DNA from: Rhodothermales bacterium
Lineage (GTDB): Bacteria > Bacteroidota > Rhodothermia > Rhodothermales > Bin80
DNA length: 64,000 nucleotides
Direction: 5' to 3'
Assembly: GCA_964291275.2 (NCBI GenBank)
Contig: OZ219799.1
Location: 2,585,145 to 2,649,144 of the forward strand
The notes under the pieces were generated by a model, which worked only from the letters and a program-made list of their open reading frames with translations, ran no database searches and was not told the DNA's origin. Below are positions 1-37,210 of the stretch, one piece after another; position 1 is the stretch's first letter, and each line of letters opens with the position of its first letter. Made by a program: the position numbers and the translations under genes.

Positions 1-900
1 GGCCAAGATCCCGTACAGACAAGCCGTGATGTAATCATACCGGACTATGATCAGCAGGAAAGCTGAGCACTTTCAGACATAACACTGGCTTCCAGGATTA
101 CTCCTTCGGAGGATAGAGAGGATCCATTCTATAAGAATGGGTTCCATATAAGCCCAAATGCCAGCCAGTTGTACGGCGAGGGAGCCGCCAGGCTCTTCTA
201 TTACGCTGAGGCTTACAATACTGCATGCGCAGCTTCGGATACGGACGAATATACCATGCTCATATATGTTTCCAATGAGAACAGGCCGGGGCCCATCACA
301 GGCCTGCAGAAGCGCTCTAAACGGGCGGTGCGTCTAACTGATGTTCTCGTCGGCACGTTTAATTTGTCTGATCTTGTTTCTGGGATATACTCTCTGCACA
401 TGGTAATCCTTGACAAAGCCAATGAGTCCAAGGTTGAACAAACCCGCAAGTTCTCTGTCTTAAATCTTGTTGCGGATCCGACATGGGTACAGTCTGCTAT
501 TGCCCTGGGAATATTCGAGGCAAGTGGCAATCCAACTATGCCGGAGGACGGGATAGAGCAGGGGCGGGTACGGATCAGGCACGTAGAAGATCTTCCAGTT
601 TTCGTACTCGTTGAGGAGCGGCCGGAACTCATTGGAGGTATCCGTGCACTGAGAGGAAAGGCGAGATATCCGGAAAGTGCACGCCAAGCCGGGATTACAG
701 GGTGGGTGACTGTGCAATTCACGGTAGACGAGGAGGGTAATGCTCGCGATGCCGTAATCCTTGAAGGCATCGGAGGTGGATGCGACGAGGAAGCCATCCG
801 GGTTATTACTGAACATGCAAAATTCAAGCCGGGGATCAGTCAGGGGAGCGCGGTTCCGTTCAGAATGTCAATGCGGATTGGATTCGGTACGCGTCGGTGA
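1..900 (+). pseudogene. TonB C-terminal-domain secreted protein, paralog copy 1 (5' end outside window; in-frame TGA at 64-66)
   Basis: Frame 1 is open from base 1 and aligns codon-for-codon with the intact paralog at 3354..4697 (GQDPVQ, LSDITLASRITPSEDREDPFYKNG, AEAYNTACAASDTDEYT, VIRVITEHAKFKPGI). TGA at 64-66 replaces TGC (Cys) of the paralog. The C-terminal ~80 aa show the TonB_C pattern (PELIGG..YPE.AR.AGI.G.V.V.FTVDE.G). Confidence 0.6.
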
Positions 901-1106
901 CGTCTGCTTCTTTAGTGATCTTCTTCTCCTCGTTTCAAGGCGTCTGGGATTTGTAATCCTGCTTGACACGCGTACAGCAGGCGGGAACACAAGTGTGGTT
1001 GGTTCGTGAGTATTCTTTGGAACGAGAGAGTTCATGAATGGGGATGCGTCAAATTTAGTGGGGGTTCGGGGGAGTAACGATAATGACTTAACCCGATCCT
1101 TCCTTG

Positions 1107-2084
1107 ATGAACCCAGAATCTTCTTTTCCTTTCTCTCCACCAATTCAGGAGCCTGTTCAGGATCTGCAGGTTGAATTGGTTCGGCATTATGTGGATGTAC
1201 TTCGCATGCTGACCGATCGGATTTCCTCCGTACCTGCGGCACCTGATCCTGCGGCGCCTGATCCTGTGGTATCAGCTCCTGAGGAGTCGGCGGCGGTCCC
1301 GGGGGCTCCTGCGCCGACTTTATGCTGGGAATCTGCGGTATCTGTGCTGGCGTGCCGTGACTGGCATACGGAGTCTCTGGTCCATTTGTGGCTTCGGCCC
1401 TCGTATGTGATGGGGCTGCATGTATTGTTTGGAATCGGGGTGAGTCTGCGGGGGCATCGTCGGATCGTGACTGTGACCGAATGCGGCCCCCAGGATCAGT
1501 CCGGTATGGAGGCGGTGCTGGACGATTTGAGCGTTCGTGGATTGGGTTCGGGGATGCTGTTGACGCTTCCTGGCAATGTCGCACTCCACGCGGCGGTGTC
1601 CCGCGTATGGGGAGGCCGCGTGTGGGTGCAGCGATGTCTGAATACGGTCATGGCCGAAGCGCTGAGCGGACTGGATCCCGATGAGGCGCTGCGGTTTCGT
1701 CACCGCCTACGACAGGCATGGCAACAGTGCGATGCGTCCCAGGCTCGGACAGATCTTCAGCAGATCACAGCAGCGTTGACCCAGGTGAATCGCTCCTCTG
1801 GAAGCGTGCTTGCGCATGCGCTGGAATCAACGCTCACCTTGCAACGTACCGGACGATTGCTCCATAGTGACCGGGGACTGCGCGTGCTGAATTCACTCAG
1901 GACACTCTTGGCTCGTGCAGGACGCAGACTGACGGCTACGCCGGTCCACCAGCGCGAGATGCACCTGTGCGCGGCACTGTTGGAACTTGAACCCCGACTG
2001 CGTCGGGTGCGACATGCGACGTATCTTCCGCAGTTGCATGCTGCACTGAAAACGTCTCTTCCTTCTAAACCATCGAACGCATGA
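1107..2084 (+). CDS. Degenerate IS256-like transposase paralog (C-terminal two thirds only, DDE residues replaced); possibly a pseudogene or passenger
   Basis: It aligns by eye to the neighbouring transposase: LFGIGVSLRGHRRIV vs LLVVGLTGQGQKII, LLTLPGNVALHAAV vs LVLLDGSKGLRKGV, VWVQRCLNTVM vs ALIQRCQWHKRE, ESTLTLQRTG vs ETLTLHKLG, LRVLNSLRTLL vs LRTTNIIESIN. The positions of the three catalytic residues read R/P, P and R. The N-terminal ~90 aa are proline-rich and unrelated. The segment looks more GC-rich than its surroundings. Confidence 0.4.
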   Translation: MNPESSFPFSPPIQEPVQDLQVELVRHYVDVLRMLTDRISSVPAAPDPAAPDPVVSAPEESAAVPGAPAPTLCWESAVSVLACRDWHTESLVHLWLRPSYVMGLHVLFGIGVSLRGHRRIVTVTECGPQDQSGMEAVLDDLSVRGLGSGMLLTLPGNVALHAAVSRVWGGRVWVQRCLNTVMAEALSGLDPDEALRFRHRLRQAWQQCDASQARTDLQQITAALTQVNRSSGSVLAHALESTLTLQRTGRLLHSDRGLRVLNSLRTLLARAGRRLTATPVHQREMHLCAALLELEPRLRRVRHATYLPQLHAALKTSLPSKPSNA

Positions 2085-2175
2085 TTGCATTATCTTCTCT
2101 CTTTCCTTCCGCCGTTTTCCAACCGTTTTTGGCCAGGAATGCGGCCAAACTGGCTCGGTTGTTTCGTAGCCCGGA

Positions 2176-3336
2176 TTGGTTCCGCTCTTGTTTCAGGCCG
2201 AAGTGAGCGAGCTTTGCGGAATTCGCTGGAAACATACCCCGACGAAGTGCCAGCGTTGGGGAACCAATTCCGGTTCAATTCGCTGGAACGGGGCGAAGGT
2301 GCCCGTTGAGGTCCCCCGGGTTCGTAACACCGAAACGAATCAGGAAGTGCCGCTGGAGACGTACAAACTGCTGCACCAGGCCGAACCCGGCTATGAACAG
2401 GAACTGGCACGCAGTGTGCTACTTGGACTCTCTCAACGCAAGTATGGGCAAGTGGCGCAACACCTGTCAGAGAGTTTTGGTCTCAGCGGCTCCACCACCG
2501 GACGCGTGTTTATCAACGAGACGGCCAAAGCACTGGAGACGTTCATGAGCCGGCGGTTTGATGAGACGGAGTTTGTCGCCATTCTCATTGACGGGAAGAC
2601 CTTGCGGAGTGAACAGATTCTTTTAGTCGTGGGATTGACGGGACAAGGACAGAAGATCATCCTCGGGTTCATGGAGGTCAAAACCGAAGCCCATCCGTGT
2701 GTGGTTGCCTTACTGCAGAATTTGCAGGCACGCGGCTTCCAGGTTACGGGCCCATTGCTGGTGCTGCTGGATGGCTCCAAAGGATTGCGCAAAGGCGTAC
2801 GAGAGGTCTTTGGAGATCGGGCGCTGATTCAGCGATGTCAGTGGCACAAACGCGAAAATGTCGTCTCCAAGATCCAGGATACCGACTTTGCTGAGCAGGT
2901 CAAGAAACAACTGGAAGCCGCCTATGCAACGCGTACGTATGCAGAAGCAAAAAAACGACTGACGACCTTGATTCAATCCTTGGAATCCCGCTGCCCAAAA
3001 GCAGCGGCCAGCTTAAAAGAGGGACTTGAGGAAACCCTCACCCTTCACAAACTGGGGCTCCCCAAGTCGCTACGCGATCGGCTTCGAACCACGAACATCA
3101 TTGAGAGCATCAATAGCAGACTGGCACATACAACGCGCAGAATCACGCGATGGAGTAACTCGGACCAACGCCAACGATGGATTGCTGCCGCGTGCCTTGA
3201 CATTGAACAACGATCCCTGAACCCCATCCCGCAAGATTGGCAGTGGGAAACTTTGCTACGGGGACTGGAACGACACGACCGAACCAAACATCAGTACACC
3301 GGTAGACTCTCACAACTTCCCCTAAACCCCCACTAA
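2176..3336 (+). CDS. IS256 family (Mutator-type) transposase
   Basis: Motifs seen: LFQAEVSELCG, VPRVRN, ILIDGKTL, LVLLDGSKGL, QRCQWHKRENV, TTNIIESINSRL. The annotated start is TTG directly after an in-frame TAG, so the true N-terminus may be truncated. Confidence 0.85.
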   Translation: MVPLLFQAEVSELCGIRWKHTPTKCQRWGTNSGSIRWNGAKVPVEVPRVRNTETNQEVPLETYKLLHQAEPGYEQELARSVLLGLSQRKYGQVAQHLSESFGLSGSTTGRVFINETAKALETFMSRRFDETEFVAILIDGKTLRSEQILLVVGLTGQGQKIILGFMEVKTEAHPCVVALLQNLQARGFQVTGPLLVLLDGSKGLRKGVREVFGDRALIQRCQWHKRENVVSKIQDTDFAEQVKKQLEAAYATRTYAEAKKRLTTLIQSLESRCPKAAASLKEGLEETLTLHKLGLPKSLRDRLRTTNIIESINSRLAHTTRRITRWSNSDQRQRWIAAACLDIEQRSLNPIPQDWQWETLLRGLERHDRTKHQYTGRLSQLPLNPH

Positions 3337-3353
3337 ATTTGGGGCATCCCCTC

Positions 3354-4697
3354 ATGAATAGAACATGTTATTTGATAAGCCTCCTTGGGTTGCTGCTTTT
3401 TGCAGCCAGCAGTACAGCTCAACAGGCTCCACGGATCGATATCGATTACGCTTCATTCGCTTATGACGAACAGGAGTCACTGGTTGAACTTTATATGGCT
3501 ATCGAAGCGAGTTCGCTTACTTATGAAGCCAGTGATTCTCTTTTCACCTCTACTATTCCACTCGAGCTAATCTTGCATAGCTCCTCCGACGCGGATTTGG
3601 ATGTATCTGCGGAACGCGTTGTTTGGGAGCAGCAGATGGATCTGCAGTTTGCTGTGATCGATTCGTCTGTGATTACAGAAGGGCAGGTGTTTTTGCGTCA
3701 AGTCCGGCTAACTGTCGTGCCCGGTGAGTACGAATTACAAGTAGTCATGCCCCCTTTGGGCCAAGATCCAGTACAAGCAAACCGTGATGTAATCATACCA
3801 GACTATGGTCGGAAGGAAAGCTGCGCGCTTTCAGACATAACACTGGCTTCCAGGATTACTCCTTCGGAGGATAGAGAGGATCCATTCTACAAGAATGGGC
3901 TCCACATACGCCCAAATGCCAGCCAACTGTACGGTGAAGGAGCTGCTAACCTCTTCTATTATGCTGAGGCCTACAATACTGCATGTGCAGCTTCGGATAC
4001 AGACGAGTATACTACGCTTATATACATTTCCAAATTGAACAAATCGGAGCCCATCCTGGGGTTACAGAAGCACTCGAAACGAGCAGTGCGTCCAACGGAT
4101 GTTCTTGTCGGTACGTTTGATTTGTCTGATCTTGTTTCTGGCCTGTACATTCTGCACATGGAAATCCGTGATAAGACCAATGAATCCAAGGTTGAACAGA
4201 CTCGCAAGTTCTCTGTCCTAAATCCTGTTGCAGATTCGACATGGATGCGGGCTGTTTTTACCATGGATATATTCGACCCAAGCGGTTATGCAATTATGGA
4301 GGACGAGAGAGAGCAGGGGGAGATACAGATCAGACCTGTAGAAGATCTTGCAGCCCTCCGGATGTTTGATGAGCCGCCGGAGCTCATTGGAGGTCTTGGT
4401 GTGTTGCAAGGTAAAGTAAGGTATCCGGAAGCCGCAAGACGAGCAGGGATTCAAGGGCGGGTGATTGTACACTTCACGGTAGACGAGAAGGGTGATGTTC
4501 GTGATGCCATAGTTCATCAAAACATGGGAGGTGGATTGGACGAAGAAGTCATCCGGGTTATTACAGAGCATGCAAAATTCAAGCCAGGCATCTATCAAGG
4601 AAACAAAGTTTCTGTGAGAATGGCGATGCCAGTTATATTCGGGTTGAGGAGGGGTTTGGGATACCCGGATTTTCCTGCACTCTTCAGAGCAAATTAA
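3354..4697 (+). CDS. TonB C-terminal-domain secreted protein, paralog copy 2 (intact)
   Basis: ATG at 3354 is followed by a signal peptide (MNRTCYLISLLGLLLFAASSTAQQ). TonB_C motifs are present at the C-terminus (PELIGGLGVLQGKVRYPEAARRAGIQGRVIVHFTVDEKG). Confidence 0.8.
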   Translation: MNRTCYLISLLGLLLFAASSTAQQAPRIDIDYASFAYDEQESLVELYMAIEASSLTYEASDSLFTSTIPLELILHSSSDADLDVSAERVVWEQQMDLQFAVIDSSVITEGQVFLRQVRLTVVPGEYELQVVMPPLGQDPVQANRDVIIPDYGRKESCALSDITLASRITPSEDREDPFYKNGLHIRPNASQLYGEGAANLFYYAEAYNTACAASDTDEYTTLIYISKLNKSEPILGLQKHSKRAVRPTDVLVGTFDLSDLVSGLYILHMEIRDKTNESKVEQTRKFSVLNPVADSTWMRAVFTMDIFDPSGYAIMEDEREQGEIQIRPVEDLAALRMFDEPPELIGGLGVLQGKVRYPEAARRAGIQGRVIVHFTVDEKGDVRDAIVHQNMGGGLDEEVIRVITEHAKFKPGIYQGNKVSVRMAMPVIFGLRRGLGYPDFPALFRAN

Positions 4698-5052
4698 GAG
4701 ATCCCAGATGGCAATAAACACAGTTTTAGAACTTCTCAGTTGAAGCACAATCAGGAATTTCCATCTCAGTGCTTTCACGAGAACGAAGGACGTTTCTCAA
4801 TGCCTCGGCTTCCTTCGCATCTACACTGAGTCCGTACTTACGTTTGACCTCAATGATCCGATTGACAAACCAACACTGGTTGTGTTCGGGTAACCATTCA
4901 GCCGCATCTTTCGCGATCTTTTCCCAACGATTTAACGCAGGAGCCGCGTGCGTAAGATTTAGAAAATCACACGCGAATTCTATTCTATCGGTTCTACCGC
5001 AATTATTGTGGAATAATTAATTTTGGGTTCCACTAAAATATAGCGTACTTCA

Positions 5053-6129
5053 ATGGAATCTTATCTGGATTTGACACGACTCACCTAGGACTGGGGGACG
5101 ACTGGAAGATTGACAGGGTGCTACTGGATGAGCAGAAACAGCGGGTAGACATTTACATTTCGCACTTGGGGGGTGCGTTGGTTTGCCCTGAGACGGGGGA
5201 GACCGGGACGCTCTATGATCATCGAAAAGAGCGGACATGGCGACACTTGGACTGCTACGAATTCAAGTGTTTTGTCCATTGTCGGGTTCCCCGGATAGAT
5301 GTGAGTGTGCGGACGATTAAGGCGCCCTGGGCGAGTGCTTCGAATCGGTATACGGATGCGTTTGAGCTGTGGACGATTAATTTATTGCAGGCGACGAAGA
5401 ACCAGACGAAGACGGCGAAGCTACTTTGCAGTAAGTTTGACACGGTCAATCGGATCCTTCACCGCAGTGTAGCGCGTGGGATGAAGCGGAGGTTGCTGGA
5501 CGCTGGACGCGATTGCGCGTGTGAGCATAGATGAGAAGGCCTTTCAGCGTGGGCATTCCTACGCAACTATTGTTAGTGATTCGGCGCGTGGCGTGGTCAT
5601 TGATATCGGGGAGAGCCGGGACAAAGTTAGCACAAAAATGCTGTTAAATCGTCTTCTGGCCGCGAAAAAGGGGGCGGTCACGACGATTACGACGGATATG
5701 TGGAAGGTCTACATTCCACGGTGCAGGAGTTATTCCCCAAGGCCAGTCTGATCCACGATCGCTTTCATTTGATCCGGTACCTCAACAAAAGGATTGATCA
5801 GGTTCGCCGCAGAGTGGTGAAGCAGCATAAGGAACTCAAATACAGTCGCTATGCACTCTTGAAAAACGAACAGAACCGAACGCAAAAGCAAGATGAAATT
5901 TTCAAAGTCATCCAGGAGGCCAATTTGCAGGTCAGCATTGCCTGTCGGTTGCGAGAGGAGTTCAAGGCGATCTTTGGATGTAAAACATTGTCCGATACAA
6001 AGCAGTACTTCCAACGATGGTTTAAAAGTGTAAAAGAATCGGCCGTGAAGGAGATCATGAAAGTAGCCGAGATGTTTGAACGACATCTCACAGGCGTGTG
6101 TAATGCACTTTGTCATGAACAATCCAATG
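5053..6129 (+). pseudogene. ISL3-type A transposase, 5' exon part, three frameshifts
   Basis: ISL3 motifs (LVCPETGETGTLYDHRKERTWRHLD, IDEKAFQRGHSYATIVSD, ITTDMWKVY, HDRFHLIRYLN) are spread over four frame segments (5053-, 5118-5534, 5521-5751, 5700-6129). The ORF is broken at 6129/6130 by the intron. Confidence 0.8.
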
Positions 6130-6642
6130 GTGTGCCACGAAAATGCATGGAGGTAAGTCAATGACGTAGCTAAAATGTATTGAACTGTGCAAGGGATGGA
6201 GGAAGGCCCTCCACAACCGCTGTACAGGCGGGGGTTGTAAACCACCCACATCTGCGGCATTTAAGAGGTGTCGTGGTGAGCGAGTTGGGAAAAGGTAGGC
6301 GTAGGAACCTATCAGGTATGAATCGCAGAGTCGAATGCAAATGAACCATTGATGATGTGTCGAAAAGTTTTAGATGATGGTCAAAACCGGGGTAGCGTTG
6401 GAATCCCGGGACGAGGTTAGCGGGAGCCTGTTTACTGGCCAACTGGCCTCCGGCATAGAGATGGCGAGACTGCGATTTGGGCCCATGTACGGAACGTGGG
6501 AACGTGTCGGGGTGATGCAAAGGGAGCGTGGCAAGCAGGCAGTACCTGTAAGCCATTGAGTACCGAGGCACTCCACACGGGCGGATCACTCCGTAGTAGT
6601 GATGAAATTCTTGTAATGGGGATGGAGCGAAGGGGGTGAACC

Positions 6643-8004
6643 ATGCAGCAAGGAGCGAGGAAGCAACCGAGAGGGAGGACTTCGGCGCAACAAGCAAAGC
6701 CGTTTCCAGTAACCAAGCGCCAAGTTTGGGACGCGTGGAAGCGAGTGAAGGCAAACCAGGGAGGGGCAGGGATTGATGAGCAGTCTATTGCGGACTTCGA
6801 GGAGAATCTTGCGGATAATCTCTACAAGATTTGGAATCGGATGGCATCGGGCAGTTATTATCCGAAGCCGGTCCGCCGCGTGAACATTCCGAAGCCGGGC
6901 GGAGGTATTCGTCCCTTAGGAATACCCACGGTGGCAGATCGGGTGGCCCAGATGGTGGTTAAACAGGCCTTGGAGCTGGTACTGGAACGCGAGTTCCACC
7001 CGGATTCCTATGGATACCGGCCGAACAAGTCGGCTCATGATGCGCTGCGTCAGACGCGAATGCGATGCTGGAAGTGGGCATGGGTACTGGACATGGATAT
7101 CAAGTTGTATTTTGACACGATAGATCATGCCCTATTGATGAAAGCGGTCCGGCGTCATACGGATCAGAAGTGGGTGCTTTTGTACATAGAGCGCTGGCTG
7201 ACGGCACCGGTGATTCATCCAGACGGGACGGAAGCGGCACGGGATGTAGGAACCCCGCAGGGCGGGGTCATCAGTCCACTGTTGGCCAATCTGTTTCTGC
7301 ACTATTCGTTTGATAAATGGATGGAGCGGAATTATCCGCAGATTCCATTTGAGCGGTATGCAGATGATATTGTGTGCCACTGCACGAGTGAGGCACAGGC
7401 CCGCGAACTTTGGCAAGTGCTCAAGGGACGTTTTACGGCCTGTAACTTAATGTTACACCCGGAGAAGACCCGGATTGTATATTGCAAAGCAACGGGTTGT
7501 GAAGGCACGTATGCGGACGTATCCTTTGATTTCTTGGGCTACACGTTTCGACCTCGAAAGACAAAGGGTCGAGGAGGCAAGATCTTTCTTGGGTTCAATC
7601 CGGCGATCAGCCGGAAGGCGGCGAAAGCCATACGGGAGACCATACACAGTTGGGGGTTGGCTCGCATGAGTCCACTCTCAATGGAACAAATCGCGGGTAG
7701 GATCAATGCGGTGGTACGTGGATGGATTACCTACTATGGTGCATTCTTCAAATCAGAACTGAGCAAGGTTCTGCTTAGCATTGACGAACATCTTATCCGG
7801 TGGATGATGCGGAAGTATAAGCGCTTCCGTGGACATTGGAGGAGGTCATGGCGATGGGTAAGGAAGATTGCACGTCAAAATTCGGGTCTATTCGTGCATT
7901 GGACGTTTCTTTATGGTTCACCTTTGTTCAATTCCAAACGACTGCATGGTAAGAGATTTTATAGCAGGACTCCTTACTGGTTGAGCTCCATGAGCTTGTA
8001 TTAA
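6643..8004 (+). CDS. Group II intron reverse transcriptase/maturase
   Basis: RT motifs seen: GGIRPLGIPTVADRVAQ, LDMDIKLYFDTIDH, GTPQGGVISPLLANLFL, YADDIVCHC. A maturase X-like region follows (RGWITYYG). No endonuclease domain is present. The last ~20-30 aa may be altered by the IS110 insertion. Confidence 0.9.
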   Translation: MQQGARKQPRGRTSAQQAKPFPVTKRQVWDAWKRVKANQGGAGIDEQSIADFEENLADNLYKIWNRMASGSYYPKPVRRVNIPKPGGGIRPLGIPTVADRVAQMVVKQALELVLEREFHPDSYGYRPNKSAHDALRQTRMRCWKWAWVLDMDIKLYFDTIDHALLMKAVRRHTDQKWVLLYIERWLTAPVIHPDGTEAARDVGTPQGGVISPLLANLFLHYSFDKWMERNYPQIPFERYADDIVCHCTSEAQARELWQVLKGRFTACNLMLHPEKTRIVYCKATGCEGTYADVSFDFLGYTFRPRKTKGRGGKIFLGFNPAISRKAAKAIRETIHSWGLARMSPLSMEQIAGRINAVVRGWITYYGAFFKSELSKVLLSIDEHLIRWMMRKYKRFRGHWRRSWRWVRKIARQNSGLFVHWTFLYGSPLFNSKRLHGKRFYSRTPYWLSSMSLY

Positions 8005-8031
8005 CTTTGTCCATTAACCAGAAACAGTCCA

Positions 8032-9174
8032 ATGCTACCTCACATCAACTCTTCCACTTCTGCATCCACGATCTCTGTCGGTATGGATGTGCATAAAAGG
8101 ACCATTGCGTTGTGTGCTTACAATGCGCGTACAGGCGTGATTTTGGATGAGCGGGGATTGCCGCATGATCTGCCGAAGGTCACTAAATATCTCCGGAAGG
8201 TCCAAGATCGTCATGGTCAGGTACGCTCTTGCTATGAAGCGTCTTCCTGTGGATTTGGCTTGCAACGCGCGTTACAGGCCCGCGGGATCTCGTGTGAAGT
8301 AATTGCGCCCTCGTCCATTCCGCGTCGTCCAGGCGAGCGCGTCAAAACGGATCGTCGAGATGCCAAAAAGTTGGCAACGCTGTACGCTGCTGGATTGCTG
8401 ACGATTGTTTGTATTCCAGATGAGGAACAGGAGGCCATCCGGTCCTTGTTGCGTTGTCGGGGAGATCTGGCAGAAACGATCACCCGGACCAAGCAGCGGA
8501 TTCTGACTTTCCTTCAGACACGCGGGTTGCAGTATCCAGGCAAGACCAATTGGACCAAGACCTTTCACACATGGATTGGCGCCTTACCGATGGCCGAGAT
8601 TGACCAGATCACGCTTCAAACGTATCTGCACCAATTAGATCAACTAACGCAAGAAGTACGCAGAATTGAGGGGGACTTAGCCGCGCAGGCCGAACGCGCC
8701 CCCTATCAAGCGCCCGTCAAGGTCTTGATGGCATTCCGAGGGATTGGTTTGGTGACGGCGTTGACCCTGGTCTTCGAGTTGGGAGATCTCCGTCGTTTTG
8801 CACATCCACGTCAGTTGATGGCATATCTGGGCCTGGTGCCAAGCGAGCACAGTTCAGGCAATCACACGCAACGGGGAGGCCTCACCAAAACTGGAAATGT
8901 CCATGTGCGAAATGCGGTCATCTCCGCCGCATGGAAGTATGCAACCCCACCCCGCCGCAGTCGTGTGCTACGACAACGGCAAGAAGCGATCTCTGCTGAG
9001 GTGATCTCCGTGGCATGGAAGGCGCAGCGTCGACTGTACAAACGTTTTCACAAACTGAGTCAGACCAAAGCACGATGTGTTGCCAATGCAGCGGTCGCGC
9101 GCGAACTGGTCGGCTTTCTCTGGGAAGCACTGCGCTTGGAAAACCCTTTGATCACCACCCGTGCGAGGGTTTGA
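8032..9174 (+). CDS. IS110 family transposase (DEDD recombinase)
   Basis: Motifs seen: VGMDVHKRTIALC, CYEASSCGF, VKTDRRDAKKLA, GLVPSEHSSGNHTQRGGLTKTGNVHVRNA. Confidence 0.9.
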   Translation: MLPHINSSTSASTISVGMDVHKRTIALCAYNARTGVILDERGLPHDLPKVTKYLRKVQDRHGQVRSCYEASSCGFGLQRALQARGISCEVIAPSSIPRRPGERVKTDRRDAKKLATLYAAGLLTIVCIPDEEQEAIRSLLRCRGDLAETITRTKQRILTFLQTRGLQYPGKTNWTKTFHTWIGALPMAEIDQITLQTYLHQLDQLTQEVRRIEGDLAAQAERAPYQAPVKVLMAFRGIGLVTALTLVFELGDLRRFAHPRQLMAYLGLVPSEHSSGNHTQRGGLTKTGNVHVRNAVISAAWKYATPPRRSRVLRQRQEAISAEVISVAWKAQRRLYKRFHKLSQTKARCVANAAVARELVGFLWEALRLENPLITTRARV

Positions 9175-9183
9175 ATCATGGTT

Positions 9184-9378
9184 TATGGAGAAGCGATTGG
9201 CACGGTAGGAGGGCCCACGAACACACCTTGCGATAGCCGGCATCTTGCCGGTGAGTGCGCGTTTAGAGATTGTGGCAGCTCCGCACGAACCCGAAATCAT
9301 GCGTTACAGCCCTTTGGGGTCAAAGCACGCGAATACCAGACTGATTAACCGTCGAAGTTGCCAAGTCGCTTCTCCATA
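9184..9378 (+). ncRNA. Candidate IS110/IS1111-type bridge (seek) RNA in the 3' non-coding end of the IS
   Basis: A 19-bp closing stem with one bulge joins tatggagaagcgattggca (9184-9202) and tgccaagtcgcttctccata (9359-9378). An inner 6-bp hairpin lies at 9237-9251 (ccggca tct tgccgg). The direct repeat cacgaac occurs at 9216-9222 and 9284-9290. A T7 tract lies at 9392-9398. Only about 40 nt of non-coding sequence lie upstream of the transposase, against about 255 nt downstream. Confidence 0.35.
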
Positions 9379-9463
9379 AGCCAAAATATATTTTTTTGAT
9401 GTAGATTTACAAAGAACATAGCACCGTGTAAGCTCTACCTGATCTGGAGAGTCCTACTATACC

Positions 9464-9496
9464 AGCCGTGTGAGTTGAGAGGCTCACGCACGGTTC
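9464..9496 (+). ncRNA. Group II intron domain V (catalytic hairpin)
   Basis: agccgtgtgag ttga gaggctcacgcacggttc matches the domain V consensus: an AGC triad at the 5' base, a 2-nt bulge in the 3' strand, a tetraloop-type cap and a ..ACGGUUC 3' end. Confidence 0.8.
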
Positions 9497-9520
9497 TGTG
9501 AGAGCCGGGGGGTGAAATCC

Positions 9521-10955
9521 CATAAGCGTTAACTTGTTTCCTATTTGATTATCTTTAGGTATCTCTACACGGGAATTGTCGTGATTTCAGCATTCTGAAT
9601 TCTAACCGATTTGGTAGAATGTTGGATATACCTGTGATTGATCATTCAACCATCGTAATCAGATGAAGGGAACCGTAACACGCGCGCCCGAGGAAGAGGA
9701 TTGGGCGGTTGTGCTCTCGTTTTTACCGAAAAATTGGCAGGAGTTGGCCGAGGAATCTGGTGCATTGCGCGGGCTACGTAAGGATAAGTCGCCGGAATGC
9801 CTACTTCGAACCTTGTTGATCCATTTAGGATGTGGTCATTCGTTACGAGAGACGGTCATACGAGTTCGTCAGGCTCAGATTGCGGATCTATCTGCGGTCG
9901 CATTGTTCAAGCGCCTGAAGAAGTCTCGTAGGTGGCTTCATGCGATGTGTGTTGCGCTGTTTCAGGAGCATGGAGTTGGCGTATCGGCGGGAGTGGGACG
10001 TCAAATGCGTGCGTTTGACGCGACCCACATCAGTGAGCCGGGACGTACGGGATCTCTATGGAGACTCCACTACAGCATAACCCTACCTGCATTGGGTTGC
10101 GATTTTTTCAATTTAACAGCGACGAAAGGAAAAGGGACGGGGGAGTCCTTGAAGCAATTTCCCATCCGGTCAGACGACTATATTTTGGTGGATCGGGGAT
10201 ATGCAACCGCTCTGGGAATCCAGCATGTGGAGGCATCTGGCGGCTATGTGACCGTGCGGGTCAATACTGGAGCCTTGCAGTTCGAGACGAAGCCCGGCCA
10301 GTCCTTTGATTTATTAGCCTCCGTGGAATCGATCAAACAGGCAGGGAAGGCGGGGGTCTGGACGGTATTCATCAAAACCTCACCCCCAATCCAAGGACGT
10401 ATTTGTGCATTGCGCAAAGCAGACGAAGCCATCCAAGAGGCAGAGAATCGGATCTTAAAGACGGCAAAGCGCAAGGGGCATCGACCACGAGATGAAACCT
10501 TACGTTATGCGCGCTATGTTATCCTGTTTACGACCTTCCCGGTCGATGAATTTTCGGAGAACGATATCCTGGAATGGTATCGATTACGCTGGCAGGTGGA
10601 ACTGGTCTTCAAACGATTCAAATCATTGGCCCAACTGGGACATCTGCCGAAATTAGATGAGGAAAGTTCACAGGCGTGGCTCTACGGGAAGCTAATGGTT
10701 GCACTGTTGACCGAAAAAATCATCCGACATGCACGGACATTTTCCCCCTGGGGCTATCCAGTGCAGACGAAGTGCATGGAGAGACTTTAAGTTTGCACTG
10801 AATCAAGTTGTGCGGGCAATTGAGCCACACTACGCCTTGAAGGAAATGATTCAGCATTGGCCTATCATTTCCAAGTCGCTGGCAGAGCCACCCAGACTCA
10901 GAAACTATCAAATTGAACGATATTTTTCTGTCACTAAAACAAGTTAACGCTTATG
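9521..10955 (+). mobile_element. IS4-family element with perfect 19-bp IRs and 10-bp TSD, inserted in the intron domain VI loop
   Basis: IRL is cataagcgttaacttgttt (9521-9539) and IRR is aaacaagttaacgcttatg (10937-10955). The TSD ggtgaaatcc lies at 9511-9520 and 10956-10965. Confidence 0.9.
9663..10790 (+). CDS. IS4 family DDE transposase
   Basis: Motifs seen: FDATHISEPG, ILVDRGYAT, and the YREK signature YRLRWQVELVFKRFK. Confidence 0.85.
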   Translation: MKGTVTRAPEEEDWAVVLSFLPKNWQELAEESGALRGLRKDKSPECLLRTLLIHLGCGHSLRETVIRVRQAQIADLSAVALFKRLKKSRRWLHAMCVALFQEHGVGVSAGVGRQMRAFDATHISEPGRTGSLWRLHYSITLPALGCDFFNLTATKGKGTGESLKQFPIRSDDYILVDRGYATALGIQHVEASGGYVTVRVNTGALQFETKPGQSFDLLASVESIKQAGKAGVWTVFIKTSPPIQGRICALRKADEAIQEAENRILKTAKRKGHRPRDETLRYARYVILFTTFPVDEFSENDILEWYRLRWQVELVFKRFKSLAQLGHLPKLDEESSQAWLYGKLMVALLTEKIIRHARTFSPWGYPVQTKCMERL

Positions 10956-10981
10956 GGTGAAATCCCCCCCGGCCACTTGAC

Positions 10982-11118
10982 CCAGAGCGGAGCGCATCTA
11001 TGGGAAGATCTAGGAGGTCAAGACGATCGGCAGAGGATACAGAAAATTTGAAAATTTCAGATCTGCAATTCTTTTCTTCTGTGGAAATCTAGACCTCTAT
11101 CCACAACATTCCCGGTAG
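10982..11118 (+). pseudogene. ISL3-type A transposase, 3' exon part (in-frame TAG at 11011-11013)
   Basis: It translates to (A)RAERIYGKI*EVKTIGRGYRKFENFRSAILFFCGNLDLYPQHSR. This matches the C-terminus of copy 2 (AKAERIIGKIQEVKTIGRGYRRFENFRLAILFFCGGLELYPQYS). Confidence 0.8.
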
Positions 11119-11122
11119 AACC

Positions 11123-11265
11123 ATCCATAAAGGTATTGGAGGTGGATTGGAAGAGGAAGTTATCAGGGTTATCACAGAGCACGCAAAATTCAAGCCAGAT
11201 ATCCATCAGGGAGCACGGTTCCAGTCAAAATGGTGGATGCCGGTTGGTTCAGGTTGCCGCGAGGA
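11123..11265 (+). pseudogene. 3' remnant of a third TonB_C paralog (frameshifted), abutting the ISL3 right end
   Basis: It translates to GIGGGLEEEVIRVITEHAKFKPDIHQG and, after a 1-nt frame change, SAVPVKMVDAGWFRLPRG. This parallels GGGLDEEVIRVITEHAKFKPGIYQG / SAVPFRMSMRIGFGTRR of copies 1 and 2. Confidence 0.65.
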
Positions 11266-12106: not shown

Positions 12107-14101
12107 TCACTGTTTGGATCTCGCGAAGGCAACGAGCGCTGCGTCCGTGCCCCCACCTGTAGCGATGACGACGAACTGCTGCCCCGAGCGCGTCCGGTAG
12201 GTCATCGGGTTCCCGTTAGTGGGAAACGGCGTCGCGCCACGCCAGAGTTCAGCACCGGTTTGCTTGTCGTACGCATACAGATATGAGGTCCCGCCGCCGA
12301 GCAATACCAAGCCCCCCTTAGTCACCAAGGATCCGGCGTTGCCGAACGTACCCAGTCGCTCCGGCAGGTCGACGCCGCGAAGCAATGGGTGCGAACGGAT
12401 CTCCTCGCTCCCTTCCCCGAAAGGCACCTTCCACGCAATCTCCCCCGCGTTGAGGTTGATCGCCACCAGATGTGCCCAGGGCGGCTTGGTGAGCGGGACC
12501 GGGCCAAGCTTGTTCTCGGGGGCCTCTACCGCGCCTGGTCCGCCGGCCTCCTGGAACATGGCGAGTGTCGCGCCATAGGGGCAGTTGTTGCTGTACTCGA
12601 CATCGACGCGCGGGTCATTGTCCGAATTCTCGCAGAGCTGGTTCGTATCGGCCTGGTCCGACGTACGCACATACAGGAGCCCGGTTTCGGAGTCGAAGGC
12701 CGCGCCGCCCCAGTTTGCGCCGCCGCTCGCGCCCGGGCGCTGAAGCGTCCCCTGAAGACTCGGCGGAGTGAAGAGTGGACCCAAGCGGAACCGTTGCATC
12801 CCGGCTACTGCCAGCTCATGGATCTCCGGGGTTAGATCGTTCGCATCTTCGAGGGACACGCCCTGCCTGCCAAAGGGCGGCGGTTTCGTCGGAAACAGCT
12901 GTGTCGGATACAATACCTCGCCTGGTACGTCGGTTAAGGTATCTACTGCCCGTTCCTCGATTGGCCACACCGGCTCGCCCGTCACACGATCGAACACATA
13001 GGTGAAGCCATGTTTCGAGACCTGAGCCACGGCATCAATCTCGCGTCCGTCCACGTTGATCGCCACTAGGTTCGGCGCTGCGGATAGGTCGTAATCCCAC
13101 ACGCCGTGGTGCACGGTCTGGAAGTGCCACTGGCGCTCGCCTGTGCGCGCGTCAAGACACACCAGCGACTCAGCGAACAGATTCGCTCCTACCCGGCGTC
13201 CGCCCCAGTAGTCACTGCTCGGCGTGCTCGTCGGCACATAGAGGAGTCCCCGCTCGACATCAAGCGACATCAGTCCCCACACGTTGGCATGACCGGTGTA
13301 ACGCCAGGACTCGTTCTCCCAAGTGTCCGCGCCGAATTCGTTACTCGATTGCGGGATGGTGAAGAACACCCAGTGCCGTTCACCTGTTCGGGCATCGAAC
13401 GCCTGCACTGTTCCGGGTGGGTCGAACACGCGCTGCACCCCGTCAGGTACGCGGCTGCCGACGATCACCAGATCCTCGAACACCACCGGAGGCGAGGTCT
13501 GGTCGAACTCGTGGCGGCTGACTTCGCGGTCATTCCCCTCGGTCAGCAAGACGCTCCCGCTCTCGCCGAAGGCCGTGTCCAGCTCACCGGTCGTAGCGTC
13601 GATCGCATATAGCCGGTCGCGGCTGTTGAGAAAAACTCTCGTGTCCTTCCCGTCGCTCCACCAGGCGATGCCTCGGTGCTTGAATCCAGTTGGCCCCGCA
13701 CCGACCGGTCCGCCCTCCCAGGCTCTCGGATCGAACGTCCAGAGTTCCGTGCCCGTTTCCGCGTCGAGTGCCACCACCCGCGTGTACATGGTGGGGAGGT
13801 AGAGGACGTCGTCGATCATGATAGGGGTCGCCTGGAAGGGACCTGGCCGCGTGCCGTACTCCTGGAGTGGCGTTTCATTCGGTTCCCATTTCCAGACGAT
13901 CTCCAGTTCGCTGACGTTGGCGGCCGTGATTGCCTGGGCCGACGAGTACTTAGTATGCGCCTGATCGGAGCCTACAAACGGCCACTCGGTAGTGGCGTCC
14001 GGCCCCTGGGCGCACGCCGCGGCGGTGGATACCATGACAATCGTGGCGATGATTTGAAGCCCCTGCTGCCTAATCTTCCATTTCTTCATTGATCCACACA
14101 A
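12107..14101 (-). CDS. PQQ-dependent (quinoprotein) dehydrogenase, secreted beta-propeller
   Basis: A 664-aa ORF with a signal peptide (IATIVMVSTAAACAQ). It has repeated W-containing propeller motifs and the glucose/sorbosone-dehydrogenase-like pattern (LYVPT, ANLFAESLVCLDARTGERQWHFQTVHHGVWDYD). The gene is visibly GC-rich. Confidence 0.75.
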   Translation of the reverse strand: MCGSMKKWKIRQQGLQIIATIVMVSTAAACAQGPDATTEWPFVGSDQAHTKYSSAQAITAANVSELEIVWKWEPNETPLQEYGTRPGPFQATPIMIDDVLYLPTMYTRVVALDAETGTELWTFDPRAWEGGPVGAGPTGFKHRGIAWWSDGKDTRVFLNSRDRLYAIDATTGELDTAFGESGSVLLTEGNDREVSRHEFDQTSPPVVFEDLVIVGSRVPDGVQRVFDPPGTVQAFDARTGERHWVFFTIPQSSNEFGADTWENESWRYTGHANVWGLMSLDVERGLLYVPTSTPSSDYWGGRRVGANLFAESLVCLDARTGERQWHFQTVHHGVWDYDLSAAPNLVAINVDGREIDAVAQVSKHGFTYVFDRVTGEPVWPIEERAVDTLTDVPGEVLYPTQLFPTKPPPFGRQGVSLEDANDLTPEIHELAVAGMQRFRLGPLFTPPSLQGTLQRPGASGGANWGGAAFDSETGLLYVRTSDQADTNQLCENSDNDPRVDVEYSNNCPYGATLAMFQEAGGPGAVEAPENKLGPVPLTKPPWAHLVAINLNAGEIAWKVPFGEGSEEIRSHPLLRGVDLPERLGTFGNAGSLVTKGGLVLLGGGTSYLYAYDKQTGAELWRGATPFPTNGNPMTYRTRSGQQFVVIATGGGTDAALVAFARSKQ

Positions 14102-27398: not shown

Positions 27399-28804
27399 GG
27401 GGCTTCCGCTTTTTAAGTGGGTTTGATGTCAGAATTAGGCTGAACAAGTAAGTGCTGGAATAGATTCGGGATTGATTTCGTTGTTATCTTAGCTGCGTTT
27501 TTGTGACGAAAATCAATCACAATCATTTACCAACGATGGAACAACGTATACAAGACATAAATCATCTTTTAGGGATTGAATCTCCTTGGGAGATTTCGGA
27601 GATCAAGCAAGACAAGACGGCTTTTACGGCTGAGATTCATGTAATCTGTTCAAAGGGTTCGGTATTGCACTGTCCAGAGTGTGGGGAAGTTTGTCCTGGA
27701 TACGACCATCGTCTTCGGAAATGGCGCCACACGGATATCTGCGAGTATCGGACGAGCGTGGTTGCGAAAGTTCCCCGTGTGGCCTGTTCGGAGCATGGGA
27801 TCAAGACCGTTTCGGTCCCTTGGGCGGATGCGCGGATGCGTTTTACAATGGCTTTTGAAAGAAAGGTAATTGACTGGTTGCAGGATACAACCAGTATTTC
27901 AACGGTGGCCACCAGGCTGGGCGTCAGTTGGACGATGATCGCCAACATCATGGCGCGTGCGGTAAAGCGCGGACTCGCCCGTAGAGAGCCGCAACCGGTT
28001 CCCCATATATGTGTGGACGAGACCTCGTACAAAAAGGGCCATAAGTATATCACGGTGGTTTCGGATTCCCAAACGGGCACGGTGCTGTTTGTCAAGGAAA
28101 AGCGCACCCATACGAGTCTGGATGCCTATTATGAGGACTGTTCGGCTGCGCAACTGGAAGCGATTGAGAGTGTGAGCATGGATATGTGGCCCGCCTACAT
28201 CAAGTCCACGAAAAAACATGTTCCAGATGCAGAATCCAAGATTTCATTTGATCGTTTTCATGTGATGAAAAAGATTGTAGAGGCGGTGGATAAAGTTCGT
28301 CGGCAGGAGAACCGGGAATTGCGGAAAGCGGGCATTGAGGATCTCACCGGAACCAAGTACGACTGGCTCACCAATCGGGAGAATATGTCTGCCCGACAAA
28401 AGAAACGATTCCAGAAATTAAAGCACAGTTCGCTGAAAACGGCGCGTGCATGGGCCATCAAGGAACTGTCCCAGAAATTGTGGCACTATGTCAGTCGTAC
28501 TTCGGCCCTCAAGGGCTGGAAGCGCTGGTTATCCTGGGCCATGCGTTGTCGACTTGAACCCATGAAAAAAGCTGCTAAGACGGTTAAGAATCATCTATGG
28601 GGAATCATAAATGCGATCGTTCTAAAAGTTAGTAATGGCCCAGCTGAAAGCATAAATAGCCGCATCAAAACCGTCAAAGTTCGTGCGCGTGGATTCCGAA
28701 ACACACAGCGGTTTGCCCATGCAATTTACTTCTATCTCGGAGGACTGGATCTGTACCCCGAAGGCCTCCAAAAACAGGCGCCCCACTCATAAAAGTGAAG
28801 AGCC
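27399..28804 (+). mobile_element. ISL3-family element type B, copy 1 (1406 bp) with 8-bp TSD GTATTAGA
   Basis: IRL is ggggcttccgctttttaagtggg (27399-). The reverse complement of the right end is ggctcttcacttttatgagtggg (ending 28804). The direct repeat gtattaga lies at 27391-27398 and 28805-28812. Confidence 0.9.
27503..28792 (+). CDS. ISL3 family transposase (type B)
   Basis: A zinc-finger region (HCPECGEVCPGYDH), plus ICVDETSYKKGHKYITVVSD, SMDMWPAY, DRFHVMK and NGPAESINSRIK. The GTG at 27503 is the ORF-track start; the first ATG is at 27536. Confidence 0.9.
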   Translation: MTKINHNHLPTMEQRIQDINHLLGIESPWEISEIKQDKTAFTAEIHVICSKGSVLHCPECGEVCPGYDHRLRKWRHTDICEYRTSVVAKVPRVACSEHGIKTVSVPWADARMRFTMAFERKVIDWLQDTTSISTVATRLGVSWTMIANIMARAVKRGLARREPQPVPHICVDETSYKKGHKYITVVSDSQTGTVLFVKEKRTHTSLDAYYEDCSAAQLEAIESVSMDMWPAYIKSTKKHVPDAESKISFDRFHVMKKIVEAVDKVRRQENRELRKAGIEDLTGTKYDWLTNRENMSARQKKRFQKLKHSSLKTARAWAIKELSQKLWHYVSRTSALKGWKRWLSWAMRCRLEPMKKAAKTVKNHLWGIINAIVLKVSNGPAESINSRIKTVKVRARGFRNTQRFAHAIYFYLGGLDLYPEGLQKQAPHS

Positions 28805-34816: not shown

Positions 34817-34844
34817 TACTACAAGATAATAAGGGTCGGTTCTG

Positions 34845-35838
34845 TCACGAATATTGTGGATAGAGTTCAAGCCCTCCACAGAAGAAGAGAATTGCAAGCC
34901 TGAAGTTTTCAAATCTTCTGTATCCTCTGCCGATGGTTTTGACTTCTTGGATTTTGCCGATGATTCGTTCTGCTTTGGCGTTGGACTGTTCATGACAAAG
35001 TGCATTGCAGACGCCGTCAAAATGTCGTTCAAACATCTCTGCAATTTTGATAACTACCTTTACAGCTTCCCCTTGAACACCGGTATGCCAGAGTTTACAA
35101 TACGTCTTCGCTTCGGCGAAGGAACTACATTCAAAGATCCCCTTGAATTCTTCAAGTAACCGCCAAGAGAAACTGACCTGGAGATTGGATTCCTGGAAGA
35201 TATTGAAGATCTCATCTTGCTTTTTGGTACCGTTCTTTTCATTCTTCAAAAGCACACAACGCGTCCCTTTCAATTCGGAATGCGTCTTCACTTCTCGCGT
35301 GCCTACGAGGTTGTTCGCTTTATTGAGATACTGGATTAAGTGAAAGCGATCATGAATCAGGGGCGCTTTGGAAAATGCATGCTTTACGGCCCCGGTATAG
35401 GCCTTCAACATATCAATCGTAACCGTTTCTACATCCTCCTTAATTATTGCAAAAATGCTGTCGAACAGCGCTATAGCGCGCTTTTTGGTCCGTCTCTCGC
35501 CCACATCAATGACCACACCCCGCGTAGTATCACTGACGATGGTCGCATACACATGGTTCAGCTTCTTGGACTTCACATCTATGCTTACGTGCCGAATTCC
35601 TCTCAGGGATCGTCGCCACAGTCCACGCGCAACACTGCGATGCATCATTCGACTGAGCTGGTTAAATCCACACCGAAGCAGCTTCGCCGTTTTCGTCTGG
35701 TTCTTGTTTGCCTCCAGTAAATCAATCGCCCAGCGCTCATAGGCATAGGTGACCCGACTGGATGCATCCGCCCAAGGAACCGTAATCGTCTTGATTCCCG
35801 CAGATGACTGGACCCTAGGAATCCGGCAATTAATAAAA
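34845..35838 (-). pseudogene. ISL3-type A transposase, C-terminal part (interrupted by ISL3-B)
   Basis: An uninterrupted frame runs from the insertion site to the TGA at 34845 (NCRIPRVQSSAGIKTITVPWADAS...HEQSNAKAERIIGKIQEVKTIGRGYRRFENF...). The first ~40 aa of the ORF-track entry 34845..35960 are read-through into ISL3-B. Confidence 0.8.
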
Positions 35839-35850
35839 GGCTCTTCACTT

Positions 35851-37140: not shown

Positions 37141-37210
37141 AAAAACGCAGCTAAGATAACAACGAAATCAATCCCGAATCTATTCCAGCACTTACTTGTT
37201 CAGCCTAATT

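Follow-up and report, generated by a model that had tools for sequence, protein, structure and literature searches.

A 6.1-kb segment (positions 4990-11122) of the window, as we call the whole 64,000-nucleotide stretch of Rhodothermales bacterium contig OZ219799.1 analysed here, holds four mobile elements stacked within one another. An ISL3-family insertion sequence (IS) is interrupted by a group II intron, and the intron in turn by an IS110-family and an IS4-family element. We are confident that this nest is genuine and that it was built by four already known mobility mechanisms, with nothing categorically new. What the analysis adds is the bridge-RNA anatomy of an IS110 clade, the repeated use of an intron domain V and a site preference of the IS4 element; this is of specialist interest, and the interest is moderate. 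The genes of all four elements lie on the + strand. The boundaries of the three inner elements were each fixed to the base by empty-site comparison, for which copies lacking the intron or the inner IS, or carrying an inner IS at another site, were taken from window paralogues, related genomes and metagenome loci (L001-L091). The original prediction, made from the window alone, had proposed the three-layer nesting and the four family assignments, and both are upheld by Pfam, Rfam and NCBIfam matches and by the empty-site copies. The elements are the following.

4990-11122, + strand: ISL3-family IS, delimited by inverted repeats, Pfam domains and homologous copies with the same ends; 1281 bp without its passengers.
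6130-10981, + strand: group II intron, RmInt1-like, delimited by empty-site ISL3 copies, uninterrupted relatives and Rfam; 4852 bp as found.
7954-9465, + strand: IS110-family (IS1111-like) element, delimited by intron relatives and 21 related elements; AG cores at 7954-7955 and 9464-9465.
9521-10955, + strand: IS4-family element of 1435 bp with CAT...ATG ends and 19-bp perfect inverted repeats (9521-9539 and 10937-10955).

The intron and its ISL3 host

The intron starts with GTGTG (6130-6134) and ends with ...CTTGAC at 10981 (GAC at 10979-10981), which fits the 5' GUGYG and 3' AY termini. Three ISL3 copies are uninterrupted at the equivalent position. The first is a paralogue in the window (34838-35790, 67% identical), in which 35790-34981 corresponds to 5312-6127 and 34978-34838 to 10982-11122; its protein reads ...CHEQSNAKAERIIGKIQEVKTIGRGYRRFENF over the intron-site region. 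The second, in the related metagenome-assembled genome Rhodothermaceae bin80 (L005), is 90% identical, and its positions 1969/1970 correspond to 10982/6129. The third, in L090, is 76% identical. As all three are colinear with the window copy, the intron spans 6130-10981 to the base. The predicted split of the transposase gene at 6129/6130 and the predicted element from GTGTG to GAC at 10981 thus match these empty copies at both ends. Deleting 6130-10981 also restores the frame to the base, as had been proposed: the joined exons read ...CHEQSN/ARAERIYGKI-stop-EVKTIGRGYRKFENF... (the slash marks the exon junction) and are colinear with the paralogue and the L005 copy.

Uninterrupted relatives of the intron itself were found in L001 (two copies), L002 and L003. 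They start with GTGTGCCACG, end with CTACTTGAC and are 84% identical to the window intron, which is colinear with them over its full length. After removal of both IS and one copy of the IS4 duplication, the restored intron has 1897 nt, compared with 1899 nt in L001; the earlier estimate of about 1.96 kb gives way to this value once the ends of the IS110 element are corrected (see below). Rfam recognises group-II-D1D4-2 at 6198-6317 (95.9 bits, E = 2.4e-18) and domain V by Intron_gpII (42.6 bits). In L001, the two related introns (587-4384) form a perfect head-to-tail tandem (...CTACTTGAC/GTGTGCCACG...), and the 3' end of the upstream copy does not fit the exon-binding site 1 (EBS1) of the downstream copy. 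The parts of the window intron are the following.

6396-6402, + strand: EBS1 (CGUUGGA) in a domain I hairpin loop (6394-6402), read from the alignment.
6643-8004, + strand: open reading frame (ORF) for the reverse transcriptase (RT)/maturase, identified by Pfam and TIGR04416; native to 7955.
9464-9496, + strand: domain V in its present state, identified by Rfam Intron_gpII and the consensus fold.
9500-10981, + strand: domain VI, split by the IS4 element into a 5' half (9500-9520) and a 3' half (10966-10978); branch-point A at 10975.

EBS1: The sequence CGUUGGA pairs over 7 bp (one G-U) with the intron-binding site 1 (IBS1) UCCAAUG, the last seven exon bases (6123-6129). The loop covaries with the exon in two relatives, namely UGUAU with exon AUGCA in L001 and UAUAU with exon AUAUA in L002. 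Hence, the loop is identified as EBS1, and the intron occupies a cognate homing site in the ISL3 gene.

Domains V and VI: Both the domain V predicted at 9464-9496 and the predicted YADD RT are borne out, the former by Rfam Intron_gpII and the consensus fold and the latter by its RVT_1 and GIIM domains. The consensus fold of domains V and VI from seven relatives has 27 pairs, 7 of them compensatory, and shows the AGC triad, a 2-nt bulge and a GAGA loop; the A at 10975, which lies 7 nt before the 3' end, is bulged. The original first base of domain V, a G, is now at 7953, and the duplicated IS110 core supplies the AG of the catalytic AGC triad. In the window intron, the first pair of domain V is lost, with C.C where G-C is expected. 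The restored domain VI, GAGAGCCGGGGGG-TGAAATC-CCCCCCGGCcACTT, aligns with six relatives, and its stem pairs covary.

RT/maturase: The intron-encoded protein of domain IV matches RVT_1 (1.2e-39), GIIM (6.3e-14) and TIGR04416 (433.6 bits, cut-off 300) and is without an En domain. Its nearest solved structures are group IIC RTs, and it is 58% identical, over 94% of the length, to a 419-aa protein of a multi-copy Sinorhizobium meliloti intron. In the relatives, the RT (441 aa) ends with ...LHGKSRVS, encoded up to its stop by AAG AGC CGT GTG AGT TGA; the window protein diverges after ...LHGK. The native end ...GKSRVS would reach its stop at 9476-9478, inside domain V. The last 17 codons of the present ORF come from IS110 DNA, so that the insertion costs the RT its last 5 native codons.

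Intron class: Intron-encoded proteins of class D (IIB3) have no D/En domains and carry the C-terminal motif LX3AX3PXLF[V/A]HW (PMC4615759). The corresponding region reads VRKIARQNSGLFVHW in the window and LDKFARQNSGLFVHW in close relatives, with S for P in both and, in the window copy, V for L. From these sequence features, the intron is RmInt1-like and probably of class D. RmInt1 homes into ISRm2011-2 (PMC4496777), and Sr.md.I1 resides in an IS66 ORF (PMC4615759). Like the RmInt1 group, the window intron has an RT/maturase without D/En domains, a homing site in an IS transposase gene and EBS1-IBS1 recognition. Unlike that group, it sits in an ISL3-family host in a Rhodothermales bacterium, its native RT ORF ends within domain V, and the copy is interrupted twice.

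ISL3 host: The outer element has 23-nt inverted repeats (4990-5012 and 11100-11122, 83% complementary). Its transposase is a pseudogene whose domains, Zn_ribbon_ISL3 (PF14690), HTH_Tnp_ISL3 (PF13542, under its cut-off) and DDE_Tnp_ISL3 (PF01610), are spread over three ORF fragments, and the element is colinear with NF033550-positive paralogues. With 6130-10981 removed, the gene starts with ATG at 5055, shifts frame near 5088, 5510 and 5700 and stops at TAG 11011-11013; the three frameshifts and the nonsense codon of the original prediction are thereby all located. The L005 copy shares some of these frameshifts and lacks others. The 8-bp target duplication usual for the family is absent at the ISL3 ends (left flank ATTCTATC, right flank ATCCATAA), and it is the protein together with the inverted repeats that supports the family assignment. 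The right flank is the following.

11123-11247, + strand: fragment of a TonB_C paralogue starting mid-domain; it shares 77-80% identity with the C-terminal TonB_C parts (757-881 and 4524-4634) of two upstream genes.

The TonB_C gene of the right flank has no continuation on the left, and the left side is therefore rearranged, which is the likely cause of the missing duplication. The prediction that all junctions are readable thus stands for the ends of the intron and of the IS4 element and fails for the outer ISL3 element.

Several further copies of these sequences lie in the window. A TonB_C domain is also encoded by the ORF 3339-4697 (Pfam). TonB_C-encoding segments, 76-80% identical, occur three times (664-887, 4419-4642 and 11123-11247); the third is a C-terminal fragment only and starts precisely where the ISL3 element ends on the right. 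There are two copies of an intact ISL3 transposase gene of 429 aa, at 27503-28789 (+) and 35854-37140 (-); the two are 99.3% identical, inverted and about 7 kb apart, and beside each lies a GGCTCTTCACTT terminus (28793-28804 and 35839-35850). This pair could be a composite transposon or an inversion substrate. A second nest is found at 34838-37200 (-), where the intact 429-aa ISL3 copy has cut off the 5' end of the 67% paralogue (34838 to about 35838) of the host element. The 371-aa ORF at 34845-35960 spans the junction of this second nest and is a read-through artefact.

The IS110-family element and its guide RNA

The IS110-family element carries the following features.

8032-9174, + strand: DEDD recombinase gene, 380 aa, with DEDD_Tnp_IS110 (PF01548, 4e-20) and Transposase_20 (PF02371, 1.1e-21).
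9185-9377, + strand: predicted bridge/seek RNA gene of 193 nt, from the consensus fold, within a 291-nt non-coding region 3' of the recombinase gene.
9220-9228, + strand: right-target guide AACACAC + CT, the block after CCCACG; reverse complement of core plus right flank.
9263-9268, + strand: left-target guide TTAG + AG, the block after GCGCGT; same sense as left flank plus core.
9333-9339, + strand: donor guide ATACC + AG, a copy of the right end of the element.

Boundaries: In the uninterrupted relatives of the intron, the counterpart of 6130-7955 is followed directly by that of 9464. The termini are constant in 21 related elements at different sites, which read flank/AG-ATCTTATAG(Y)AGGAC ... 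GTCCTACTATACC-AG/flank, with the right end CTATACC-AG (here and below, slashes in site sequences mark the junction of element and flank). In L005, a 94.5%-identical copy lies at an unrelated site. The element thus spans 7954-9465, and the net insertion is 1510 bp since only one of the two AG cores comes from the target. It splits the base of domain V between G-AG and CC (GAGCC...), through the AGC triad.

The original prediction had placed an element of 7988-9430 in domain IV, just after or overlapping the RT stop. Its ends are about 32 bp too short on each side, and the true location is within the RT ORF, at the 5' base of domain V. In favour of the earlier anatomy, with its domain IV loop and 1.96-kb intron, the RT ORF does reach a stop at 8002-8004, and short AGCT-like repeats near 7984 and 9431 resemble junctions; it is hardly tenable, however, as three uninterrupted relatives pass from the equivalent of 7955 straight to domain V, their RT ends through domain V with ...GKSRVS, and conservation among IS110 copies from unrelated sites extends over 7954-7987 and 9431-9465. 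The uninterrupted introns, the L005 copy and the termini of the 21 elements together rule out an element of 7988-9430 in domain IV.

The window also has, at about 14517/14518 (-), an empty counterpart of the IS110 site of L005/L089, with about 80% identity. This site is 1 nt shorter than the pre-insertion site rebuilt from L005.

Family features: The recombinase scores 252.6 bits (cut-off 140) with NCBIfam NF033542, "IS110 family RNA-guided transposase." The element has 13-bp subterminal inverted repeats, TATAGCAGGACTC (7960-7972) and GAGTCCTACTATA (9449-9461), which are complementary at 12 of 13 positions, and terminal extensions AGATTT and CCAG of 6 and 4 nt, each counted with the shared AG core. 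IS1111-type elements, as described by Siddiquee et al. (PMC11187229), have subterminal inverted repeats of 11-13 bp, extensions of 7 (or 6) and 3 nt and a downstream non-coding RNA. Like the IS1111 seekRNA elements ISEc11, ISPa11 and ISKpn4, the window element has a DEDD recombinase, no duplication beyond the shared core, subterminal inverted repeats with short extensions and a long structured-RNA region 3' of the gene. It differs from the IS1111 elements described by its AG core and by extensions of 6 and 4 nt. Its target also differs, being the domain V base of a group II intron rather than REP or attC, with guides that fit 7/11.

Guide RNA: We aligned the non-coding region from 22 elements and derived the fold from 14 representatives with RNAalifold. 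The alignment shows a conserved scaffold with two hypervariable blocks. In the consensus fold, a long basal stem carries two internal loops with the guide blocks; 13 of its 37 pairs show compensatory changes. The right guides match core plus right flank as reverse complements, for example ATATGCC-CT with AG/GGCATA, AAACTAC-CT with AG/GTAGTT and CAATTCC-CT with AG/GGGATT. The left guides match in the same sense, for example CAAC-AG with CAAC/AG, TTTT-AG with TTTT/AG and AATT-AG with AATT/AG. The donor guide covaries as well, reading ACATC-AG in four elements with the right end ...CTACATC-AG. Taking one representative per guide type across 13 species, with values read from the alignment, guides match their own flanks at 99 of 143 positions, compared with 47.5 ± 6.8 when guides are paired with the flanks of other elements; none of 50,000 such permutations reached the observed value. 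On this covariation and the fold, the non-coding RNA is assigned a bridge/seek RNA architecture. As in IS1111 seekRNAs, two segments match the two target strands and another loop matches the element ends (PMC11187229); IS621 is the named reference for the bridge RNA concept.

CCGTGT at 9424-9429, the sole 6-mer match to the target in the IS110 non-coding region, was rejected as a guide; it is semi-conserved in relatives with other targets. The block in which it lies (9420-9445, CACCGTGTAAGCTCTACC) resembles the insertion site by this CCGTGT and by CTCTACC, compared with the reverse complement of GGTAAGAG. The likeness is probably coincidental, a similar block being present in relatives with other targets. 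In L013 and L011 (OZ244148.1), IS110-family guides do not fit their own flanks, yet sibling guides in the same genome do. This pattern suggests that guide RNAs may act in trans between siblings or that guides may have been exchanged after insertion.

Insertion sites in domains V and VI

IS4 site in domain VI: The IS4 element has the anatomy that had been claimed, exactly to the 19-bp perfect inverted repeats and the 10-bp target duplication (GGTGAAATCC, 9511-9520 and 10956-10965, perfect). Its gene is the following.

9663-10790, + strand: intact IS4 transposase, 375 aa, with PF01609 (5.2e-17) and NF033592 (137.7 bits, cut-off 115).

Full-length homologues have 369-388 aa. The translation reads Y-RL-R-WQV-E-LVFKRF-K at the signature Y(2)R(3)E(6)K, which together with 5'-CAT ends and duplications of about 10 bp characterises the IS4 family (PMC2266710). 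As in that family, with the IS231/ISH8-like elements as candidate subgroups, the window element has a single unframeshifted DDE ORF, CAT termini and 10-11 bp duplications, and some target specificity has been described (PMC2266710). Copies in L083 and L084 are 97% identical, with identical ends and 11-bp duplications. The sites GGGGG-CATGAT-CCCC, GGG-AGTCCT-CCCC and ...GGTATT-CCCCC (L085) follow the pattern G-run/N6/C-run, which holds for four to five sites. The element sits in the domain VI loop of the intron, and the stem-loop GGGGGG-TGAAAT-CCCCCCC conforms to the same pattern. A GGG(N)5CCC target, which resembles this pattern, is reported for IS231A. An intron remnant in bin80 (L005/L089) was hit independently in the same domain VI loop, where the IS4 element lies in the opposite orientation.

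IS110 site in domain V: A metagenome scan for the IS110 right end gave five further junctions (L087-L091). Those of L088 and L090 lie in domain V of other intron variants with different exons; L089 is the L005 site again, and L087 (AG/GTGAGCA) and L091 (AG/GTGTGAA) are non-intron sites. Together with the window and L004, four exon contexts thus have the element at the same domain V position. The introns of the window and L090 are 78% identical in domain I and 86% in domains V and VI, compared with 98.4% for the IS right end (Fisher p = 2e-4). This argues for at least two independent insertions into domain V or for homogenisation of the IS by gene conversion. Between the window and L004, the IS is 95.6% and the intron flanks are about 93% identical, and these two insertions may be one event. 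In L090 (about 12460-12730), the first 132 nt of an intron run directly into the final 63 nt of the IS110 sequence, followed by domains V and VI; this composite is internally deleted and has an AG microhomology at the deletion junction. Intron residence is not a general habit of the IS110 relatives, since L004 alone of 79 genome loci has intron context.

We tentatively propose, while considering it unlikely as a whole, that a Rhodothermales IS110/IS1111-type lineage uses the AG of the AGC triad in class D-like intron domain V as a recurrent landing site despite guide mismatches at two core-proximal bases. This would work through tolerance or exploitation of mismatches at a multi-copy hairpin target or through guides supplied in trans, and the insert, closed by its subterminal repeats, may ride on the retromobility of the intron.

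Several observations weigh against our reading of the nest and of this site. At the left flank, the guide TTAG fits the site TAAG at 3/4 positions, with 2/2 for the core AG. At the right flank, the predicted GTGTGTT fits the site CCGTGTG at 4/7 (+3 to +6), and the two core-proximal positions mismatch. A sibling guide with a perfect match to domain V (CACACGG-CT) is absent from the 35 guide sets. As for the intron, EBS2 and EBS3 partners were sought in the alignment; the candidates are invariant across introns with different exons, and none was accepted. The class label derives from 58% RT identity and a near-match to the class D motif, with V for L and S for P. Finally, the ISL3-intron junctions have been observed in this window only; exact-sequence look-ups with its RT, IS110 and IS4 proteins and with paralogues from the same genome gave no match.

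The guides of the window element fit the site at 7/11 positions plus core, compared with 8-10 of 11 in most relatives. In the L005 copy, the left guide differs by A to G from that of the window and the left flank likewise (TTGG-AG with TCGG/AG); its right flank fits at 2/7. A search for the predicted cognate site TTAGAGGTGTGTT across the window gave only matches with 3 mismatches, below chance expectation.

The recurrence in domain V can be explained in more than one way. Domain V may be a true preferred target of the IS110 lineage, hit repeatedly by independent insertion and comparable to REP or attC specialists, which we regard as possible though somewhat doubtful. The IS right end abuts the same domain V nucleotide in the four exon contexts, the identities between the window and L090 make the IS younger than the split of the host introns, and repeated hairpin elements are known targets of IS1111/IS110 members (PMC11187229; PMC1525189). 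However, the guides of all available copies (AACACAC-CT) fit the right flank in domain V at only 4/7, whereas the non-intron site L091 fits GTGTGTT better than domain V and L087 equally well. Moreover, the remnants compared are short (63-73 nt), the IS ends are perhaps conserved or gene-converted, the window and L004 may count as one event, and survival in neutral DNA would enrich such sites too.

Instead of repeated insertion, a single ancestral IS110 insertion could have been spread as a passenger by retrohoming of a still mobile composite intron. This is improbable. In such a composite, pairing of the subterminal repeats would fold the 1.5-kb insert away as an additional helix that separates domain IV from domain V. 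The composite is indeed found beside different exons, the 13-bp repeats (7960-7972 and 9449-9461) would pair in the RNA and unite the junctions, both IS are structurally peripheral (the J4/5 junction and the domain VI terminal loop), and the window and L004 are similarly diverged in IS and intron. Against it, the comparison of the window with L090 makes the IS far younger than the intron divergence, the first pair of domain V is lost and the RT C-terminus altered, and two full-length composites at different sites were not recovered among the loci compared.

That the nest is wholly or partly an assembly artefact from collapsed repeats has a negligible probability: all four elements are multi-copy in related genomes and the ISL3-intron junctions are confined to the window, but a 2.84-Mb contig is the longest listed in the protein search with the window's own RT and recombinase, removal of the intron restores the ISL3 frame to the base, the intron without both IS is within 2 nt of the length of its relatives, and the two copies of the 10-bp IS4 duplication agree perfectly. 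Independent assemblies also show the inner junctions again, namely the RT-IS110-domain V junctions in L004, the junctions of the IS110 right end with domain V in L088 and L090 and the IS4-domain VI junction in L005/L089, which argues that they are not assembly artefacts.

The original prediction had expected that this single locus shows the target preferences of the four families. These preferences emerged only on comparison with copies from other genomes, from which the IS110 guide-flank covariation, the G-run/N6/C-run sites of IS4 and the EBS1-IBS1 pairing of the intron were obtained.

Order of insertion and state of the nest

The nesting fixes the order as ISL3 first, then the intron, then the IS110 and IS4 elements. 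This part of the predicted sequence of events stands; decay of the ISL3 gene, which had been included in it, is not placeable in time relative to the other insertions. Nor can the order of arrival of the IS110 and IS4 elements be fixed from the nesting; L004 has the IS110 element without the IS4 element, but in a different intron copy.

The following course is proposed. An ISL3-family IS would have inserted into a TonB_C paralogue, and a later rearrangement of the left flank would account for its missing target duplication. The sense strand of the ISL3 transposase gene would then have received an RmInt1-like intron by retrohoming, at the site where the EBS1 pairing is seen. The IS1111-like element, with its DEDD recombinase and 193-nt bridge/seek RNA, would have entered the AG core at the 5' base of domain V, a site that may be near-cognate or may have been selected in trans by the RNA of a sibling copy. 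The intact IS4-family element would have entered the domain VI terminal loop by cut-and-paste, duplicating 10 bp. The + orientation is required for splicing of the intron from the ISL3 transcript; the shared orientation of the IS110 and IS4 elements with their host layers may be chance.

Most likely, the stack is an inert graveyard in which every layer was a harmless landing site for the next, because the host gene is dead, the intron has grown to 4.85 kb, its RT has been shortened by 5 residues at the native end and domain V has lost its first pair. Some remaining splicing of the composite intron may be conceivable since both inserts are peripheral, one in the domain VI loop and the other at the J4/5 junction, where the subterminal repeats close it. 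For the bacterium, the locus is probably inert.

Like other mobile-element graveyards (IS in IS, IS in intron, intron in IS), the nest reflects serial insertions into already non-essential DNA, and each layer is datable relative to its own host only. Unlike the usual graveyards, it combines four families and four mechanisms within 6.1 kb, all co-oriented and with the inner boundaries resolved to the base. It is therefore a worked example of how elements accumulate within one another. It also shows that the ends of IS110-type elements, which are without terminal repeats or duplications, are set by comparing empty sites and not by looking at one locus. For an uncharacterised AG-core clade of bridge/seek-RNA recombinases, the copies compared define the guide loops, with 13 natural guide-target pairs. 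A natural insertion at an imperfectly matched site is relevant to the off-target rules of these recombinases, which are under development as genome-editing tools.

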